Shown: one piece after another, positions 11,529 through 58,607 of the stretch
Layout of the letters: each line of letters starts with the position of its first letter
How positions within the stretch are numbered: position 1 is the first letter of the stretch
From: Candidatus Woesebacteria bacterium
Lineage (GTDB): Bacteria > Patescibacteriota > Microgenomatia > UBA8517
Assembly: GCA_016700095.1 (NCBI GenBank)
Contig: CP065002.1
Coordinates: 643,667 to 707,666 of the forward strand
Direction of reading: 5' to 3'
Length of the DNA: 64,000 nucleotides
Position numbers and translations under genes: made by a program
The notes under the pieces: generated by a model
The model's database searches: none
The model's input: the letters and a program-made list of their open reading frames with translations, nothing else
What the model was told of the DNA's origin: nothing

Positions 11529-11798
11529 ATGTTCCATACGTATGTTTTAATAGTATCGAACGGTAATTTTTATATTGGTTATACCAAAGACTTGAGAAAA
11601 AGATTTCATAACCATGTTAACGGTTTGGTATATTCAACCAAAACGAAATTGCCAGTAGTATTGGTATACTATGAAGCATGTATAAATGAATATGATGCTA
11701 TAAAGAGAGAACGTTATCTAAAAAGTGGACCTGGAAGAAAGTTCATTAAATACAGAATTAGGTATTATTTAAATAAAATAACGCCTGGGGCCAGTTAG
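11529..11798 (+). CDS. Small GIY-YIG nuclease-family protein (YhbQ/UPF0213-like)
   Basis: YVLIVSNGNFYIGYTKDLRKRFHNH matches the GIY-YIG core. 89 aa, sitting between two tRNA-Leu genes. Confidence 0.6.
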   Translation: MFHTYVLIVSNGNFYIGYTKDLRKRFHNHVNGLVYSTKTKLPVVLVYYEACINEYDAIKRERYLKSGPGRKFIKYRIRYYLNKITPGAS

Positions 11799-11885
11799 AA
11801 CCCTGGTACCAGACGCATGTATAAATACTAATTGTTTAGCTATCGTTATATACTAAGGATTTTACATCTTGGGTTCTAACTGGCC
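11789..11885. repeat. Perfect 15-bp inverted repeat (GGCCAGTTAGAACCC / GGGTTCTAACTGGCC) with a 67-nt loop, bridging the GIY-YIG stop and the tRNA-Leu(GAG) 5' end
   Basis: Seen directly. The left arm contains the GIY-YIG stop codon. The right arm overlaps the first 3 nt of the tRNA. Confidence 0.6.
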
Positions 11886-26698: not shown

Positions 26699-27769
26699 TT
26701 AAATAAACCTAACCTGCATGCCGTCTTTGGCTTTAGTTGAGAGTGACACCGTTTGTCCGGGAAATTTTGCACCATTCCCCCATATTTTTGCCTGTTTTAT
26801 CTCCTTGGCCATATCCGTACTCACATCATTAATAATTTGATGTAACGTTTGGTCGCGTGCAACAATTATCGGGTTATTAAAACTTGGCTCTTCTTCACGT
26901 CGAACCAGATAAACACGCACAAATGCCAGTTTCTGCCAGATAGCTTCTCTTAATGCTTCCAATCCAATTTCTTTCTCGGCACTGATATTAAGTGCATCCG
27001 GAAGTCTAGCTCGACTATCAACGTCGGATTTGTTTATTATCGTTAACGAAGGTAAGTATGCTCTATTGCTCGCAAATGCATCAATGAGTCTATCCATAGT
27101 CAGTTTTTCTTTGATTGTTACTTCGGCATTTCTGAAGCCGAATTCTTTTGCAACTTCTTTTATCGTTTCCAGGTTTAAGTCTTGTTTGATATTGTTTCTT
27201 AGTTGAATATTGCCTCGAGCTTTTTTCTCGACGGTAACTCTTGGTGGATTAATATCAAGTCGAATGCCATTTCCGTAAAGGGAAGTTTTTATTTTGGCAA
27301 CTTGCTCTAAATTATCAATGTCCGTAATAATTATTATTAGGTCGGCTCCACGGGCAACCGACAAAACTTCTTTGCCTCTACCTTTTCCTTTTTCTGCTCC
27401 GCCAATAATTCCTGGCACGTCAAGTATTTGGATGTTTGCGTTATTGTAATGCATCATTCCGGGAATGACTGTCAGTGTCGTAAACGCGTACGGAGCAATT
27501 TTGCTTTTAGCGTTTGTTAATTTAGTAAGTAAGGTAGATTTTCCGACGGATGGCGGACCGACTAAGACAACGGTTGCATCACCTTGTTTTTTGACGGCAT
27601 ACCCTCCACCACCTCCGCCTTTGGAAATTTGCTCTTTTGCAATTTCTTCCGATTTGAGCTTAGAAATTTTTGCTCTGAGTTTTCCAATATGGTGCTCGGT
27701 ACCTTTGTGGTACGGCGTCTCACGGATTTCCTTTTCGATTGCATCTAGCTGTTCTCTGATAGTAGCCAT
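26699..27769 (-). CDS. DRG-family GTPase (Obg/HflX superclass, DRG/Rbg1 type) with C-terminal TGS domain
   Basis: N-terminal TPYHKGTEHHIGKLRAKISKL matches the DRG signature (TQKNKATEHHLGLLKAKLAKLR). G1 GPPSVGKST, G3 DVPGII, and a TGS-like C-terminus. Confidence 0.7.
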   Translation of the reverse strand: MATIREQLDAIEKEIRETPYHKGTEHHIGKLRAKISKLKSEEIAKEQISKGGGGGGYAVKKQGDATVVLVGPPSVGKSTLLTKLTNAKSKIAPYAFTTLTVIPGMMHYNNANIQILDVPGIIGGAEKGKGRGKEVLSVARGADLIIIITDIDNLEQVAKIKTSLYGNGIRLDINPPRVTVEKKARGNIQLRNNIKQDLNLETIKEVAKEFGFRNAEVTIKEKLTMDRLIDAFASNRAYLPSLTIINKSDVDSRARLPDALNISAEKEIGLEALREAIWQKLAFVRVYLVRREEEPSFNNPIIVARDQTLHQIINDVSTDMAKEIKQAKIWGNGAKFPGQTVSLSTKAKDGMQVRFI

Positions 27770-27845: not shown

Positions 27846-28241
27846 TTACTTTTTTGCCTTTTCGGTTTTTGTCCAAACGGTATATTGTACGAAGTTTGCA
27901 ATGGCAGAAAGTATAAATACCCAAACATAGCTGCTTATTCCAAAACCAAATGCAAACGCCATTCTGGCGATGGTCCATAGTGAGACAAAGTTTATGACTA
28001 AATAGACAAGTGCCATATTTGTTTGACCTTTCACTTTTATTTCAAGATCAGTAAATGTTGGCTCGATTTGCCATAAAATGTAATTCCAGACAAATCCGGT
28101 AAATATCGCCGCTTGTATGGGTGTAAACAAATTATTTCCCAATGTAAAATGTGCCGGGAAAAGCAAACTCGCAGAAAAAAGTAACGCGGAATTAGCAACC
28201 CACAACATCATGAATTTTTTGTATCTTTTTATAATAATCAC
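27846..28241 (-). CDS. Hypothetical 4-TM membrane protein
   Basis: Hydropathy only. Confidence 0.35.
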   Translation of the reverse strand: MIIIKRYKKFMMLWVANSALLFSASLLFPAHFTLGNNLFTPIQAAIFTGFVWNYILWQIEPTFTDLEIKVKGQTNMALVYLVINFVSLWTIARMAFAFGFGISSYVWVFILSAIANFVQYTVWTKTEKAKK

Positions 28242-28437
28242 CCCCTGTCATTATTAAGATTATTTTAGATTGAAGTAAGTGTCAATTGAATATTTGTCAG
28301 GTATAATAGATCATAGATTAAATATTAAAAATCAAAGATTAAATATAAAGCATTGATTTCTATGTCTAATTGATCTGGGATAAAGATACGGAAATAGTAT
28401 TACTTGTTGGTTGTTGACTGTTGGGTGTTCACGCAGT

Positions 28438-28457
28438 GCGCCCTTGTAGTTTAATGG
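28438..28457 (+). other. 20-nt duplicate of the 5' end of tRNA-Arg(UCG) (GCGCCCTTGTAGTTTAATGG), about 60 nt upstream of the tRNA
   Basis: Direct repeat of 28497-28516. The segment does not fold as a tRNA. Confidence 0.6.
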
Positions 28458-28497
28458 TTAAGCAAAGCTTGTTGATTAAACTATTTCAAGCCTACAT

Positions 28498-28569
28498 GCC
28501 CTTGTAGTTTAATGGATAGAACACTGGTCTTCGGAACCAGATATGGGGGTTCGACTCCTCCCGGGGGCA
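28498..28569 (+). tRNA. tRNA-Arg (anticodon UCG)
   Basis: GCCCTTGTAGTTTAATGGATAGAAC, anticodon loop CU-UCG-GA, T-arm GGGGGTTCGACTCCTCC, acceptor with two G-U pairs. Confidence 0.7.
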
Positions 28570-28597
28570 CACAATATATATTAAGTATATTACTTTC

Positions 28598-28860
28598 TGA
28601 TACTCGTTTTACTCGTAATAAGCATCTTGATACTCGTTTTACTCGCAATAAGAATCTTGATACTCGTTTTACTCGTAATAAGAACCTTGATACTCGTTTT
28701 ACTCGTAATAAGAACCTTGATACTCGTTTTACTCGCAATAAGCATCTTGATACTCGTTTTACTCGTAATAAGAACCTTGATACTCGTTTTACTCGTAATA
28801 AGCATCTTGATACTCGTTTTACTCGTAATAAGAACCTTGATACTCGTTTTACTCGTATTA
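28598..28860 (+). repeat. Tandem array of a 30-bp unit (TGATACTCGTTTTACTCG[T/C]AATAAG[A/C]A[A/T]C[C/T]T), 8.8 copies, no spacers
   Basis: Read directly. Units differ at 3-4 positions only. The array generates the artefactual repeat ORFs on both strands. Confidence 0.9.
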
Positions 28861-28915
28861 GAACACTGGTCTTTGCGAACCAGATATGGGGGTTTACACT
28901 CCTTCCGGGGGCACA
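28861..28915 (+). other. Degenerate copy of the 3' half of tRNA-Arg(UCG), from anticodon stem to acceptor
   Basis: GAACACTGGTCTTTGCGAACCAGATATGGGGGTTTACACTCCTTCCGGGGGCA versus the tRNA GAACACTGGTCTTCGGAACCAGATATGGGGGTTCGACTCCTCCCGGGGGCA. Confidence 0.7.
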
Positions 28916-29201
28916 ATATTTAATGATTGTTCTACCTTCTGATACGCACTTTGTTCGGGATTGGCAAGAGATAAGATACCGAGAGTAATATTTTGGGTTA
29001 AAGGTTTAAGTGAGAAAACACACTAATTATCGGTAATTAATTCACAATAAACATTTCCCCTGTCAGTTACTTGCTACTTGATTTAAATAGTATGTAAAAG
29101 ATAATATACACAATTGTTGTATACTTAAGAGTCTGGAAAAAGTGATATTCATCCCCCACTTACAGGTAGTTTAATATCGTAAAGAGGATAAGTGCTTAAT
29201 T

Positions 29202-31121
29202 ATGAAAACAAATAAAAATACCAGTGTCTTAATGATGGCATTCGGCGCACTTGGCGTGGTGTATGGTGACATTGGTACATCCCCACTTTATGCAATTAAA
29301 GAAATATTTTTTGGAATTCACCATCACCTGGAGATTGAAACACTAAACGTCTTGGGTGCGATATCATTGGTATTTTGGGCAATAACGGTTATTGTTTCTT
29401 TCAAGTACATCGTTTTTGTGCTGAGAGCAGACAACGAAGGCGAAGGTGGTGTATTTGCTCTTTATAGTTTAATTTCAACGATCAAATCGAGATTTAAAAG
29501 AATATTTTCGGCATTGTTGGTTTTAGGTGCAGGTTTACTGTTTGGAGATGGGATAATTACACCTGCCATAAGCGTAGTATCCGCAGTTGAAGGACTAAAT
29601 GTTCTTACAAGCGATTTTGAACATTATGTCGTGCCTATTACAATTGTCATTCTTACCGGCCTTTTTGCTATTCAAAGTAGGGGTACGGCTAAACTTGGAA
29701 AAATATTTGGACCAATTGTTTTAACTTGGTTTATTTGTATTGGAACCATTGGTCTTTGGCATACTTTACAAACACCTGAGATTTTAAAAGCGATCAATCC
29801 AATTTATATTATTCATTTTGTTAACCACCAGTCCATAAAACACATCATGGTGATATTGGGTTCCGTAATGCTAGTTGTAACTGGAGGTGAAGCAATGTAC
29901 GCAGACATGGGGCATTTTGGTAGAACACCTATTCGCATGAGTTGGTTTTGAGTTGCAATGCCAGCATTACTTTTAAATTATTTTGGCCAAGGGGCGTTTC
30001 TTTTGTCCGGTCAGCAAGTAATTAATAGTAATTTATTTTTTAGCCTGTATCCAAATTGGGCTCTAATTCCAATGGTCGTTTTGGCTACCCTTGCAACCAT
30101 AATTGCATCGCAGGCATTAATTACAGGTGCATTTTCTTTGACCACTCAAGCTATTAATCTTAAATTATTGCCTTTCACGAAAACAATTCATACACATGAA
30201 CACCATGAAGGCCAAATATATGTTCCTTTTGTAAATTGGGCATTATATGTGGGATGCATTAGTTTGGTTATTGTATTTAAATCCAGCAGTAACATGGCAG
30301 CTGCATATGGATTAGCAGTATCTCTTGTAATGTTTATAACTACCTTAGTTATGATCGAGGTAACCATTGATAAATGGAACTGGTCAAAAATAAAAGCCCT
30401 TTCGTTATTTGTACCCCTGGCTTTGATTGACTTAAGCTTTTTGTTGTCTAATTCAGTTAAGTTTTTTGTAGGTGGTTATGTGCCGTTAATGATTGCCCTT
30501 TCACTATATGTAATTATGAAATCGTGGAATTGGGGTGAAAAACATACCGAGCATGCGTTACGTGATTTAGGTACGTTAACAATTAAAAACCTAGTTGACA
30601 TAAAAAAGACAGCAAAACACTTCGTCGATAAATCGGTGGTCTTCATGTCCTCGGAAAATATACTGGACGAAAATAGTACGGTTTCTACACTTGAACAAGT
30701 ATACTGGGAAAGAGTTGGTATGTTACCCAAACACATACTATTACTTCATATATCCAGGTTGAAAGTACCTCACGCTACACAAAAAGAATATCAGGTGAAA
30801 AAATTTTTTGAAGACGATAAGAAAGGAAGTATTACTTTAGTAAAATACAAGTATGGTTTTATGGAAGAACCTCGTATTAATGAAATACTTGTACGTCTTG
30901 CTAAACACAAAGAAATTAACATAGATATCCATCCTTCGCAGTGGTCGGTACACGTTCTTAAGCCCAATATCCAACTTGAAAGAAGACTGAGTCCAAAGGA
31001 ATATATAAAACACAAGCTATATAGATTCATTGCAAATAACGCAACGACGCAGGATCAGTTCTGGGATTTGGACGCCGCTGCAAATCTAACAATTCAGTCT
31101 ATTCCGGTTAGGATACTATAG
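29202..31121 (+). pseudogene. kup: KUP/HAK/KT potassium transporter interrupted by a single in-frame TGA (29949-29951); both parts are in the same frame
   Basis: GVVYGDIGTSPLY signature; ...[30 protein letters not shown] aligns with Kup ...[21 protein letters not shown] without a gap. Confidence 0.7.
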
Positions 31122-33408: not shown

Positions 33409-33867
33409 GGTAGACACATAAGCTTGTCCGAACAAGGTGTGAGGAGGAGTGAAACGACAAATCTTGTCAAGCTTTGCTTGCAGGTGATTTGATTTTTAGA
33501 TAAATAATATGCCGTGGTGGTGGAATCGGTAGACACATAAGCTTGTCCGAACAAGGTGTGAGGAGGAGTGAAACGACAAATCTTGTCAAGCTTTGCTTGC
33601 AGGTGATTTGATTTTTAAATAAATAATATGCCGTGGTGGTGGAATCGGTAGACACGCATGCTTGTCCGAACAAGGTGTGAGGAGGAGTGAAACGACAAAT
33701 CTTGTCAAGCTTTGCTTGCAGTGATTTGATTTTTAAAATAAATAATATGCCGTGGTGGTGGAATCGGTAGACACGCAAGCTTGTCCGAACAAGGTGTGAG
33801 GAGGAGTGAAACGACAAATCTTGTCAAGCTTTGCTTGCAGGTGATTTGATTTTTAAATAAATAATAT
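33409..33867 (+). repeat. Tandem 119-bp repeat (3 full units at 33511, 33630 and 33749, plus a degenerate leading copy); each unit begins with the first 31 nt of tRNA-Leu(UAA)
   Basis: Unit: GCCGTGGTGGTGGAATCGGTAGACAC(A/G)(T/C)A(A/T)G + CTTGTCCGAACAAGGTGTGAGGAGGAGTGAAACGACAAATCTTGTCAAGCTTTGCTTGCAGGTGATTTGATTTTTAAATAAATAATAT. Units are more than 95% identical. Confidence 0.9.
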
Positions 33868-33953
33868 GCCGTGGTGGTGGAATCGGTAGACACGCAAGAC
33901 TTAAAATCTTGTGACCATTATTGGTCGTGCGGGTTCAAGTCCCGCCCTCGGCA
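33868..33953 (+). tRNA. tRNA-Leu (anticodon UAA), type II; U5:U68 mismatch in the acceptor stem
   Basis: GCCGTGGTGGTGGAATCGGTAGACACGCAAGA-CUUAAAA-TCTTG, variable stem GACCA/TGGTC, T-arm GCGGGTTCAAGTCCCGC. Confidence 0.7.
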
Positions 33954-34064
33954 CAATTTAGATGATGGCTATTAGTTTTTAGTTATCTGAAAAAGATTAG
34001 CTATTTACCTACATACACGTGTATGCGTTGAAAGCGAAGTTTGTTGGAATTTAATAATTAATAT

Positions 34065-37647: not shown

Positions 37648-38763
37648 ATGAATTACCAAACGATAGCACGCCTTTACGGCACCCTTGCGAAACCGGTGTT
37701 TTTTAAACTCGATCCTGAGATGGTACACGACACGATTACTGTTGTGGGGGGGTTATTGGGTAAGTACGCATTTACCAAAACCTTAACCGGTTATTTTTTC
37801 GACTATGAAAACTTCGTCTTAGAGCAAAAAGTAAACGGTATTCGCTTTAAAAGCCCCGTTGGTTTATCGGCAGGATTTGACAAAAACGCCAACCTGGTGG
37901 ACATACTCCCCTATGTCAGTTTCGGATTTGCAGAAATAGGAAGTATTACTTTTAAACCTTACAAGGGAAATCCAAAACCAAGGTTATATCGATTGCCAAA
38001 ATCACAAGCGCTTGTGGTTTATTATGGCTTGAAAAATATTGGAGTAAAAAAAATAATTCAAAAACTAAAAACATCCAATATTCCACAGGATTTTCCAATC
38101 AGTATTTCGATAGCTAAAACAAATAGTTCAACTACCTCAACAACCATCGGTGGCATTAATGATTATTATTCGTGTTTCAAAAAAGTAGTCGAAGCGGGAG
38201 TTGGTAATTTGTATACTCTTAATATCAGTTGCCCGAATACATTCGGAGGGGAACCGTTTACCACACCGGAAAAATTAGACAAGCTACTTAAGAAAATTAA
38301 CACGATAAAATACGACAAACCGCTATTTGTTAAAATGCCTATCAATTTAGCCTGGAATGACTTTGATAAGTTGCTTAAAATTTGCATCAAATATCGTGTA
38401 TCGGGTGTAGTTATTGGTAACTTAAATAAAAATCACAAGGATAAAAACATCAAAGATACTATCCCCGAAGGATTAAAAGGCGGGATAAGCGGAAAACCCA
38501 CTTGGGATTTGTCTAATGCTTTAATTGAGAAAACATATAAAAAATACAAAGCTAAATTAACTATTATAGGAACAGGTGGCATATTCTCGGCTGAGGATGC
38601 CTATACAAAAATTAAAAAGGGTGCAACTCTGGTTCAGCTTATTACAGGCATGATTTATCAGGGACCTCAGCTTATCGCCCAAATAAACGAAGGCATAGTT
38701 GACCTTATGAAAAAAGACGGTTACAAAAATCTATCGGAGGCTGTGGGAAAGGAAGTCAAATAA
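37648..38763 (+). CDS. pyrD: Dihydroorotate dehydrogenase, class-2-like architecture but with a Cys at the catalytic-base position
   Basis: N-terminal FKLDPEMVHD extension and NPVGLSAGFDKN...GNPKPRLYRL align with E. coli PyrD. The active-site motif is NISCPNT, versus NISSPNT in class 2. Confidence 0.8.
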   Translation: MNYQTIARLYGTLAKPVFFKLDPEMVHDTITVVGGLLGKYAFTKTLTGYFFDYENFVLEQKVNGIRFKSPVGLSAGFDKNANLVDILPYVSFGFAEIGSITFKPYKGNPKPRLYRLPKSQALVVYYGLKNIGVKKIIQKLKTSNIPQDFPISISIAKTNSSTTSTTIGGINDYYSCFKKVVEAGVGNLYTLNISCPNTFGGEPFTTPEKLDKLLKKINTIKYDKPLFVKMPINLAWNDFDKLLKICIKYRVSGVVIGNLNKNHKDKNIKDTIPEGLKGGISGKPTWDLSNALIEKTYKKYKAKLTIIGTGGIFSAEDAYTKIKKGATLVQLITGMIYQGPQLIAQINEGIVDLMKKDGYKNLSEAVGKEVK

Positions 38764-55425: not shown

Positions 55426-55616
55426 AAGTTTATCACCCTACTTTATCACCCTACAGGTGAAATGAATTAACACAGCTCACTTTTTAGAATTAGTACGGTA
55501 ACTTAGAGTTAGTTGCCATCGGACGTTCATATATAGATATACCTTAAACTTACAGAATGCTTATTAAGAACAGTCCCAAGTATATAGCACATCACTAAAA
55601 TCTAGTTTTTGAAGAT

Positions 55617-56363: not shown

Positions 56364-56592
56364 GTTTAAATATTAACAATATATTAATATTACTACGAAC
56401 ATTTATTAAAAAGAATACTTGGAGTAACAAGGTATATATCTAATATGGATTATATCACCCTACAGGTGAAATGAATTAATACAGCTCACTTTTAAGAATT
56501 AATACAGTAACTTAGGATCAGCTACCATCGGACATTCGAACATGGATATACCTTAATCCTACAGAAAGCTTTATAAGAACAGTCACAAAATG

Positions 56593-57141
56593 GTTTATCA
56601 CCCTACAGGTGAAATGAATTAACACAGCTCACTTTTTAGAATTAGTACGGTAACTTAGAGTTAGTTGCCATCGGACGTTCATATATAGATATACCTTAAA
56701 CTTACAGAATGCTTATTAAGAACAGTCCCAAGTATATAGCACATCACTAAAATCTAGTTTTTGAAGATTTACTGGTTTAATAAAAAAGTTTGCTACTCCC
56801 ACATCCCCCCACATTATTTCAGCAATATTTTGCTTTGGATAATACTCACTGTCCATTTGAAACAATAAGGTAGAATAATCTGTGAATTTATCATTGCCTC
56901 TGGGATCATCTTGAGTGAAATTGGGATAACCTCCTATTTTATGACCGGTTGGATCAGAAAATTTAAGATATGTTTTAACTAACTCACTGTAAAAATCATC
57001 AAAAGCTTTGTCGTAATTAATTTCACTTTCATATCGAAAATCAACATAGGGAATAGATGCGATACTTCTCTTGAATGTTAAAGAAAACTCATTTTCTAAT
57101 ACGAAGGTTTCTTTTGGGGTAGGCCAATCATAATCTAAAAT
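56593..57141 (+). repeat. About 550-bp segmental duplication of 55428-55988 (repeat core plus tRNA-like module plus the 3' 372 bp of the DUF1963 gene)
   Basis: More than 98% identical. One 13-nt and one 1-nt indel. Confidence 0.85.
56770..57141 (-). pseudogene. Truncated duplicate (C-terminal about 120 codons) of the DUF1963 gene, carrying a 1-nt insertion in a poly-A run
   Basis: Copy of 55617-55988. It lacks its 5' two-thirds and promoter. An A8-to-A9 frameshift lies near the 3' end. Confidence 0.7.
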
Positions 57142-58183: not shown

Positions 58184-58607
58184 ATAGTTTTCTATATCTT
58201 ATTAAACTTCATCACAATTAATCTGCAATTAATATAAACTGAAACAAAGTTAGCAAAACGCTATTATTTCACTATTCCAGGGGAAATATCTCAAATTTCA
58301 CTAGTTCTCCATTAACGTAGGTGCAATGATACTGATGAGAACTTTTGTTATCAACCATATGAAGTAGGAAATGGAGAATGTTCTCGACCACTGCACTATT
58401 ATTCCTGTCCACCGTCCACTCAAGTGGTTTCCACTTTAAAATGCCCTCTCTTATTTCCCTACTTACAAAAGGTTTATCACCCTACAGGAGATTATCACCC
58501 TACAGGTGAAATGAATTAACACAGCTCACTTTTAAGTGAAATACATTATCACCCTACAGGTGAAATGAATTAACACAGCTCACTTTTAAGAATTAATACG
58601 GTAACTT

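Follow-up and report, generated by a model that had tools for sequence, protein, structure and literature searches.

The window, by which we mean the whole stretch of 64,000 nucleotides of a Candidatus Woesebacteria genome analysed here, has a G+C content of 35% and carries 14 tRNA genes. One of these, tRNA-Arg(UCG), is preceded by a copy of its own 5' end and a hairpin module and followed by an AT-rich flank, a spacer-less 30-bp minisatellite and a degenerate copy of its own 3' part (Table 1). An earlier note on this DNA had described a tRNA, a 5' copy, an array and a 3' copy at this locus, and all four are present as judged by ARAGORN, Rfam, TRF, blastn-short and shuffling. Two of its measurements have been revised: the 5' copy, which agrees with the tRNA at 20 of 21 positions, starts at 28440 rather than 28438 and is 21 rather than 20 nt long, and the spacer-less 30-bp array does begin at 28598, after a gap of 27 nt (28571–28597) rather than 28.

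Table 1. Features of the tRNA-Arg(UCG) locus, in window coordinates.
Feature	Position	Strand	Description or evidence
Distal 5' piece, copy of tRNA-Arg nt 1–21	28440–28460	+	GCCCTTGTAGTTTAATGGTTA, 20/21, ends GGTTA
Hairpin module	28446–28484	+	Covariance model match, fold, inverted-copy test
Leader between hairpin and tRNA	28484–28497	+	TTTCAAGCCTACAT; degenerate acceptor 5'-strand complement CAAGCC
Intact tRNA-Arg(UCG), functional gene	28498–28570 (Rfam end 28569)	+	ARAGORN and Rfam, 64.6 bits
AT-rich 3' flank of intact tRNA	28571–28597	+	Collinear with 28916–28939
Spacer-less 30-bp minisatellite	28598–28857 (TRF to 28864)	+	8.7–8.9 units of TGATACTCGTTTTACTCGTAATAAGAACCT
3' piece, tRNA nt 19/20–73	28858–28915	+	Starts TTAGAAC; decaying pseudogene
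Flank of putative older allele	28916–28965	+	Collinear with 28571–28627 (flank of intact gene and first array unit)

The GTPase gene adjoining the locus (26699–27769, minus strand) encodes a protein with no exact database match. Its closest relatives in the genome collections, which come from Woesebacteria/Microgenomates (CPR) metagenome-assembled genomes, reach 56–63% amino-acid identity at best, and the metagenome collections scanned with it held no relative above the best of the genome collections (~62% amino-acid identity). Relatives usually have tRNA-Arg(tcg) upstream of the GTPase gene, at a distance of a few tens to a few hundred bp and mostly in divergent orientation, within the recurring order His / Leu-taa / Pro / Gly-tcc / Arg-tcg / GTPase / Leu-cag / Leu-gag / Val / Phe / Gly-gcc / Arg-tct / Lys / Leu-tag; the genes between these tRNAs vary among relatives. 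This order is preserved in the window, but is spread out by the cargo genes EamA, NUDIX, Kup and Na/H exchanger. A hydrophobic 131-aa ORF without a Pfam match (27846–28241, minus strand) separates the GTPase gene from the tRNA-Arg locus in the window, whereas the two are often less than 150 bp apart in relatives. Within the tRNA cluster of two related loci, L010 (9648–9721) and L023 (16893–16967; L-numbers denote loci of related Microgenomates), ARAGORN finds tRNAs with a CUA anticodon, labelled Pyl, which may be amber-suppressor-type tRNAs.

Three further features of the window lie outside the tRNA-Arg locus. The Kup potassium transporter is encoded by two adjacent plus-strand ORFs, 29202–29951 and 29958–31121 (Pfam K_trans residues 2–238 and 242–441, respectively); the split gene is probably a pseudogene, or reflects a sequencing or assembly frameshift. 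Cumulative GC skew has its maximum near 36–38 kb and gene orientation changes from plus to minus at 38763/38765; the skew peak and orientation switch near 38.7 kb could mark the replication terminus. Finally, a repeat family with TATCACCCTACAGGTGAAATGAATTAACACAGCTCACTTTTAA, dispersed or in tandem, is found at 55429–55454, 56453–56731 and 58491–58590 (143 bp twice, plus shorter copies).

The intact tRNA-Arg gene and its partial copies

Both partial copies, whose relationship to the tRNA the earlier note had left to a statistical alignment test, pass it: the alignment score of the 5' piece was reached in 0 of 2000 shuffles, and the aligned part of the 3' piece (28859–28914, 56 nt) is 89% identical to tRNA nt 20–73, with a blastn-short E value of 1e-9. 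The 3' piece is the longest partial tRNA copy seen among 1045 tRNA genes in 161 sequences. It is a pseudogene, as indicated by its 8-nt anticodon loop and a T-loop altered from TTCGACT to TTTACAC. The similarity between the intact gene and the 3' piece runs in register for 30 or more nt beyond the tRNA end into the 3' flank, where CACAATAT..TAC(T/C)TTCTGATAC at 28568–28603 pairs with 28912–28945. Within the flank at 28916–28965, the first 34 nt are ~70% identical and the 24 nt that follow ~50%, the similarity being weak beyond TGATAC.

The two pieces resemble each other in the D-loop, which reads GGTTA at 28456–28460 in the 5' piece and TTAGAAC at 28858–28864 in the 3' piece, as against GGATAGAAC (GGATA) in the intact gene. 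The derived T shared by both pieces occupies D-loop position 19/20, and GGTT is in none of the 25 commonest D-loop variants listed for 125 tRNA-Arg(tcg) genes of relatives. Moreover, the pieces fit together as nt 1–21 and nt 19–73, separated by 28461–28857. Because of this shared GGTTA D-loop, unlike the GGATA of the intact gene, the 5' and 3' pieces look like halves of one older allele, and the 5' piece can be read as the 5' end of such an allele of the tRNA-Arg gene.

A polar family of tRNA-end modules in related Microgenomates

The hairpin module upstream of tRNA-Arg consists of a D-arm part, nt 8–16 (TAGTTTAAT), a conserved loop, AAGCAAAGCTTG (28460–28471), and an inverted copy, ATTAAACTA (28475–28483). 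It folds with −14.7 kcal/mol (z = −2.6), and the inverted-copy test gives z = 2.9. A covariance model, CM R1, was built from 13 hairpins of other genomes with the window excluded; its sole significant match in the 64-kb window is 28446–28484 (29.1 bits, E = 1.3e-6), and its other matches lie 5–25 nt before tRNAs that begin with the same 21 nt as the copy. This match identifies the 5' piece and hairpin of the window as a typical member of a 5'-type module family, with a copy identical at 20 of 21 positions, a loop followed by an inverted D-arm, and a distance of 13 nt to the tRNA. The geometry of the leader likewise fits other members, in which this gap is 8–17 nt. A sigma-70-like promoter is predicted at 28279–28307, from which transcription would pass through the hairpin module. 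Rfam found nothing but tRNAs in the window and in 7 element-bearing loci, and neither the 5' type nor the 3' type of module described below belongs to an Rfam family.

Every tRNA of 160 loci was scanned for copies of itself, using a set of 934 tRNAs for exact 16-mers and a non-redundant set of 812 tRNAs from 133 loci for exact copies of at least 14 nt. Exact 16-mers from the 5' end recur upstream of 21 of the 934 tRNAs and in no case downstream or reversed, while those from the 3' end recur downstream of 17, again with no instance upstream or in reverse; no 16-mer from the tRNA middle recurred in this set. The non-redundant set gave 5' copies at 23/812 tRNAs and 3' copies at 18/812, or about 5% of tRNAs, with at least one copy in 27/133 loci and both types at 4 tRNAs (Fisher p = 0.0012). 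The copies are regular as well as polar. The modal length of the 5' copies is 21 nt and most begin 51–62 nt before the tRNA; 15 of the 18 3' copies measure 19 nt, and most end 72–85 nt after it.

Each type has a characteristic order of parts. In the 5' type, the copy of nt 1–21 is followed by a 12-nt loop, A-AGC-AAA-GCT-TGG (A-AGC-NNN-GCT-TG, with AGC/GCT varying to AGG/CCT), an inverted D-arm that is sometimes extended to the whole 21 nt, a gap of 8–17 nt and the tRNA. In the 3' type, the tRNA is followed by an 11-nt spacer, TCGnnnnnCTC (TCGnnnnnCTCG in the module definition), a 19-nt imperfect inverted copy, the sequence GATAGYGC, a small hairpin, TGCAC(A/GG) and an exact copy of tRNA nt 56–74. 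Such ~60-nt insertions directly follow Leu, Pro, Gly and Val tRNAs in L006, L013, L018, L024, L025, L031, L084, L097, L103, L106, L123 and L152. The stems of both modules covary beyond shuffled and slid controls. For the 3' type, RNAalifold did not return a consensus fold. In 13 of the 13 full-length 3' elements scored, the outer copy is identical to the tRNA at 19/19 positions, while the inverted copy is only ~70% complementary. Subfamilies of the 3' type cross tRNA identity, as Leu-taa of L097 resembles Leu-gag of L006 and Leu-taa of L084 resembles Leu-gag of L103. Where a neighbouring tRNA provides a landmark, the modules are insertions into tRNA-tRNA junctions of otherwise 2–4 nt, the evidence for filled and empty sites coming solely from cross-species comparisons of gene order.

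The tRNA-Arg(tcg) genes of L025 and L096 carry the same kind of module, with copies that differ from the resident tRNA (15/21 and 16/21 positions identical). In L096 (2928–3110), the tRNA-Arg(tcg) gene is preceded by two 5' pieces in succession that belong to an allele (GCCCTTGTAGCTTAACGGA..) with a 5' sequence different from its own; one of these pieces has the hairpin, and the allele they represent resembles that of the window. Because these pieces come from a different allele than the gene beside them, allele replacement does occur at the tRNA-Arg locus.

A survey of tRNA introns in Patescibacteria does not mention these duplications, and we found no description of the modules in the literature on tRNA direct repeats or integrative elements in Patescibacteria, or in that on partial tRNA copies, hairpins and target-site duplication. 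The insertions combining a tRNA-end copy with a hairpin are apparently an undescribed, regular and polar family in CPR bacteria. Several candidate explanations were rejected. A phage origin of the hairpin was discarded, as the motif has no exact match in 2.9 million viral contigs and six degenerate matches there are unrelated coding sequence. The idea that the loops serve as promoters (TTGGCC / TTGATA..TATAAT) was dismissed, given inconsistent spacings of 9–17 nt and sites too near the tRNA +1. An origin from reverse-transcribed mature tRNA was rejected since no CCA follows the 3' copies, and four elements compared by hand gave reason to drop the idea that inverted copies carry a DGR-like adenine signature.

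The 30-bp array and other rearranged tRNA genes

TRF describes the array (28598–28864) as 8.9 copies with a period of 30 bp, 93% matches, no indels and a score of 457. Variants of the unit (CGT/CGC; GAAC/GCAT/GAAT) are interspersed, and an 18-nt core, TGATACTCGTTTTACTCG, occurs 9 times in the array and nowhere else in the 64-kb window, against an expectation of 0.04. With its tandem units of ~30 bp the array is superficially like a CRISPR array, but, as the earlier note had stated, it is not one: the period equals the unit length of 30, indels are 0%, the units abut and spacers are absent; nor are the units palindromic, and no cas genes were found among the ORFs tested. The ORFs that cover it, which start inside or overlap the tRNA, encode repeat peptides, and none is credible, so that the view that they are not proteins stands. 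On the plus strand the array units form no hairpin by themselves. Near-identical units placed head to tail at one locus define a minisatellite (VNTR), and the array shares with bacterial minisatellites its 30-bp units, 93% alike with interspersed variants, its non-coding character and its restriction to a single locus. Unlike ordinary VNTRs, it is situated exactly at the rearrangement junction in what appears to be a split tRNA gene.

The earlier note had suggested that the 30-mer may derive from the D-loop/anticodon-stem region of the tRNA and had regarded the array as inserted, and neither claim is upheld. Since the collinear similarity described above extends past the tRNA into the 3' flank, the 30-mer is mostly tRNA trailer rather than tRNA, its first ~20 nt and probably all 30 aligning with that flank as preserved after the 3' piece; at the level of the first array unit, TCGTTTTACTCGTAATAAGCATCT aligns weakly with GCACTTTGTTCGGGATTGGCAAGA of the older-allele flank (12/24 positions). 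Only TA(A)GAAC within the 30-mer resembles the D-arm. It sits exactly where the last unit meets the 3' piece, which is better accounted for by a microhomology junction than by derivation of the unit from the tRNA. Most likely, the array is a slippage minisatellite that would have arisen at this junction, by expansion in place.

We also compared the 30-mer with elements of related loci. It shares its length, start (TAAG..CTTG) and end (..GTA) with a 29–30-nt element of L004 and L008, TAAGCAAAGCTTGG..TGTA; with shuffle p values of 0.0035–0.025 before correction for multiple testing, homology between the two is no more than suggestive. With the 3'-type spacers of L006 and L097 the 30-mer has only the 12-mer TCGTTTTACTCG in common, and a kinship with 3'-type elements was rejected as the profile match was not significant (nhmmer E ~5 per array unit). 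The window contains no 19-nt copy of the tRNA 3' end and is not a member of the 3' type. On the strength of the repeat-peptide ORFs, the lack of a plus-strand hairpin and the non-significant element homology, the array is treated as a non-coding minisatellite expanded at the junction. Spacer-less arrays are a recurring by-product of tRNA-end modules; at tRNA-Gly of L004, a 29-bp spacer-less array of 4.6 copies, whose unit starts with the loop motif, lies inside the same kind of module, and L123 has two 60-nt modules in tandem.

A second rearranged gene in the window is tRNA-Leu(UAA) (33868–33954), where four tandem 119-bp units, 97% alike, lie within 33409–33898. Each unit consists of the first 26–31 nt of the tRNA followed by 88 nt, and this 88-nt part comprises a remnant of the 3' half of the anticodon loop and CAAGCTTTGCTTG, which is the hairpin loop in reverse. 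The break falls in the anticodon loop, the position occupied by group I introns of tRNA-Leu(UAA). A related module, present once, is found in L115, with a 34-nt copy and a 93-nt insert. These units, together with the polar tRNA-end copies in the 133 related loci, bear out the proposal that tRNA genes are recurrent targets of rearrangement here.

Small GIY-YIG genes are found in these tRNA clusters. Between tRNA-Leu(cag) and tRNA-Leu(gag) of the window, whose counterparts in many relatives are separated by just a few nt to a few tens of nt, lies an inserted GIY-YIG ORF of 89 aa (11529–11798, plus strand; Pfam 6e-13). Its stop codon is spanned by a perfect inverted repeat of 15 nt, GGCCAGTTAGAACCC / GGGTTCTAACTGGCC (11789–11803 / 11871–11885), which abuts tRNA-Leu(gag). 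Among relatives, L040 (7105–7827), L020 (17820–18250) and L006 (10665–11034) have such genes flanked by an exact 5' tRNA copy on one side and the tRNA itself on the other; L040 has two GIY-YIG cassettes in tandem before tRNA-Lys, and the copy in L006 is frameshifted. In L037, L040, L044 and L047, GIY-YIG genes are also found after tRNA-Arg(tcg). No GIY-YIG gene lies next to the amplified segment at tRNA-Arg in the window, where the nearest is the ORF at 11529–11798, 17 kb away.

Proposed history of the locus and its alternatives

These relationships have led us to favour, tentatively, a history in which an older tRNA-Arg(UCG) allele took up one insertion in its D-loop, after which the array expanded. 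The older gene would have been split in the D-loop after nt 21, with a 3-nt TTA at both borders, by DNA that now spans 28461–28857 and may originally have measured ~140 bp, made up of hairpin, leader, a complete tRNA-Arg(UCG) and trailer. The incoming copy would then have become the working gene, leaving the older one as a 21-nt 5' piece and a decaying 3' piece with its flank. The left border of the splitting DNA, the TAAGCAAAGCTTG loop followed by ATTAAACTA, the inverted complement of tRNA nt 8–16, is the hairpin module that is the hallmark of the copy, loop, inverted copy and tRNA insertion family. The right border would have been joined at the TA(A)GAAC microhomology between trailer and D-arm, and the 30-bp stretch of trailer beside it would have grown to 8.7 units through replication slippage or unequal exchange. 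The incoming copy may stem from a homeologous or sister locus, by recombination within the conserved tRNA sequence. We infer this order of events and this source, and slippage from the structure of the array.

The single insertion explains why the T at D-loop position 19/20 is common to both old pieces and missing from the intact gene, although one shared nucleotide in AT-rich DNA has a chance of ~1 in 3. It is further favoured by the exact abutment of the pieces (nt 1–21 and nt 19–73), by the CM R1 match of the hairpin (E = 1.3e-6) and by the family itself, which is polar and whose modules are insertions in filled/empty comparisons. The L096 pieces of another allele indicate that replacement happens at the tRNA-Arg locus, and the L004 tRNA-Gly module also holds a spacer-less array. 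The flanks behind the 3' piece and the intact tRNA are collinear, and an identity of 89% in the tRNA part against ~50–70% in the flank is as expected for homeologous loci, although this contrast involves few sites. Against the single insertion stand the family members without a downstream 3' piece, which are the majority and suggest that 5' module and 3' duplication could be separate; the genome and metagenome collections yielded no donor and no close relative, and the array copy number could suffer from short-read assembly.

At the level of the family, it is plausible, though we hold this even more cautiously, that an undescribed class of miniature tRNA-gene insertions exists in Microgenomates, of which the tRNA-Arg gene and array of the window would be one elaborated product. 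Each insertion would be a direct-inverted-direct triplication of the terminal ~20 nt (nt 1–21 or nt 56–74) with conserved loops. The occurrence of subfamilies at different tRNAs in different genomes suggests a mobile, re-targeting element or a dedicated enzyme; by analogy, the latter might be GIY-YIG-like or Cas1-like, cutting tRNA genes in both elbow loops. Direct-inverted-direct arrangements are known as tandem inversion duplications, or products of fold-back template switching, from Salmonella and from human DUP-TRP/INV-DUP work, and the modules share their geometry of copy, inverted copy and copy of the terminal ~20 nt. De novo snap-back would, however, not give these modules, as their loop sequence is conserved across genomes and different tRNAs.

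Two enzymatic systems offer parallels. The casposon (Cas1) inserts at the tRNA-Pro 3' end, duplicating a 15-bp target site, and a T-loop-guided staggered cut by the casposase can duplicate the tRNA 3' end (PMC5137440). The likeness lies in a duplication of fixed length at or overlapping the tRNA 3' end, placed by the T-psi-C-loop palindrome, and in repeated integration, which would lead to arrays; in contrast, the modules have neither casposase nor terminal inverted repeats, their 19–21-nt duplication is wholly inside the tRNA, and the inserts measure 30–65 nt. SegB, a free-standing GIY-YIG homing endonuclease of T4/T6 phages, cuts tRNA genes and drives segmental amplification (PMC13096335), which is reminiscent of the small GIY-YIG genes in these tRNA clusters and of the tandem amplification of tRNA-containing segments. 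Unlike SegB, the GIY-YIG proteins here are predicted catalytic domains of ~90 aa only, and none adjoins the tRNA-Arg gene of the window. By analogy with these systems, GIY-YIG enzymes or casposase-like cutting can be proposed as the source of the breaks at nt 21 and nt 55/56.

The main rival to the single insertion, possible but in our view rather doubtful, consists of two local events: a member of the 5' hairpin family upstream, and later a ~104-bp tandem duplication via slipped misalignment of TAGAAC (D-arm) and TAAGAAC (trailer), with subsequent 30-bp slippage at the junction. The rarity of the downstream 3' piece in the family speaks for this sequence of events, as do the collinearity of the copies from D-arm to flank, their spacing of 342–344 nt (104 nt + 8 × 30) and the TA(A)GAAC microhomology at both end points. 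However, two independent A-to-T changes at the same D-loop position would be needed, or a change and its reversal in a functional gene, and a flank divergence of 30–50% is high against 11% in the tRNA part.

That the hairpin, the array or both are functional, as a structure for pre-tRNA processing or insulation (an RNase P or RNase III signal, or sequestration of a decoy tRNA end) or as an array of protein-binding sites, is unlikely. In favour of such a role are distal copies that stay perfectly identical to the tRNA (19/19 in all 13 3' elements) while the inverted copies decay, covariation in both stems, and the predicted promoter that would transcribe through the module. The modules are nevertheless patchy, present at ~5% of tRNAs and in 27/133 loci and hitting different tRNAs in each genome; they have no Rfam family and, for the 3' type, no RNAalifold consensus, and the array lacks a plus-strand structure signal and occurs once.

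Tyrosine-integrase islands and prophages duplicate att sites at tRNA genes, and the earlier note had called the self-duplications att-like. The present locus resembles such sites in having displaced tRNA-end copies beside a restored tRNA, with 3' pieces downstream and 5' pieces upstream, and a direct repeat of a tRNA end does flank inserted DNA. In the sense of an integrase island, however, the label is not borne out: an integrase is lacking within ~5 kb, and what the copies bracket is 397 nt of gene-free DNA. We consider it very improbable that a tRNA-targeting integrase island or prophage, since almost wholly deleted, left the copies behind as attL/attR scars, although such integration is classically recognised by direct repeats of tRNA ends, cargo genes between the conserved tRNAs of the region vary, and L127 and L159 have longer copies (anticodon loop to 3' end) 466–722 nt downstream. 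No integrase domain was found by Pfam in the ORFs tested at 24.3–36.0 kb and 10.4–19.4 kb, and in place of an integrase and kb-scale cargo there are only 288 nt from tRNA to 3' piece, with repeat-peptide ORFs. Across the family, too, the bracketed DNA is 30–400 nt without an integrase, the breaks lie at D-loop nt 21 and T-loop nt 55/56, and the modules carry an inverted copy and a conserved loop. A D-loop break with both a 5' and a 3' piece present, the putative halves of the old gene, is not what one att crossover yields, and the hairpin motif is absent from the 2.9 million viral contigs.

Finally, an assembly artefact in the array copy number or in the juxtaposition itself is extremely unlikely, for while short reads do not easily resolve 263 bp of 93%-identical units in what is probably a metagenome assembly of an uncultivated lineage, the units vary in an irregular pattern, both borders have unique sequence, and analogous arrays occur in independent assemblies (L004).

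To our knowledge, tRNA genes are classic landing sites for mobile DNA, and known cases involve integrases and kb-sized elements. Here, in genomes of less than 1 Mb, the insertions into tRNA genes are 30–400 nt long, with fixed D-loop and T-loop breaks, exact 21-nt or 19-nt self-copies and matching inverted copies. The tRNA-Arg locus itself is a pseudogene-plus-minisatellite scar, and its interest is its membership in a polar family of tRNA-end duplications. If repeated microhomology-driven scarring is all that is at work, the locus is an ordinary pseudogene with a minisatellite. If a dedicated mechanism underlies the family, it would represent a new way to rearrange or exchange tRNA loci without tRNA loss, would be relevant to tRNA annotation and to the assembly of CPR genomes, and could explain the build-up of cargo genes between the conserved tRNAs of this region.
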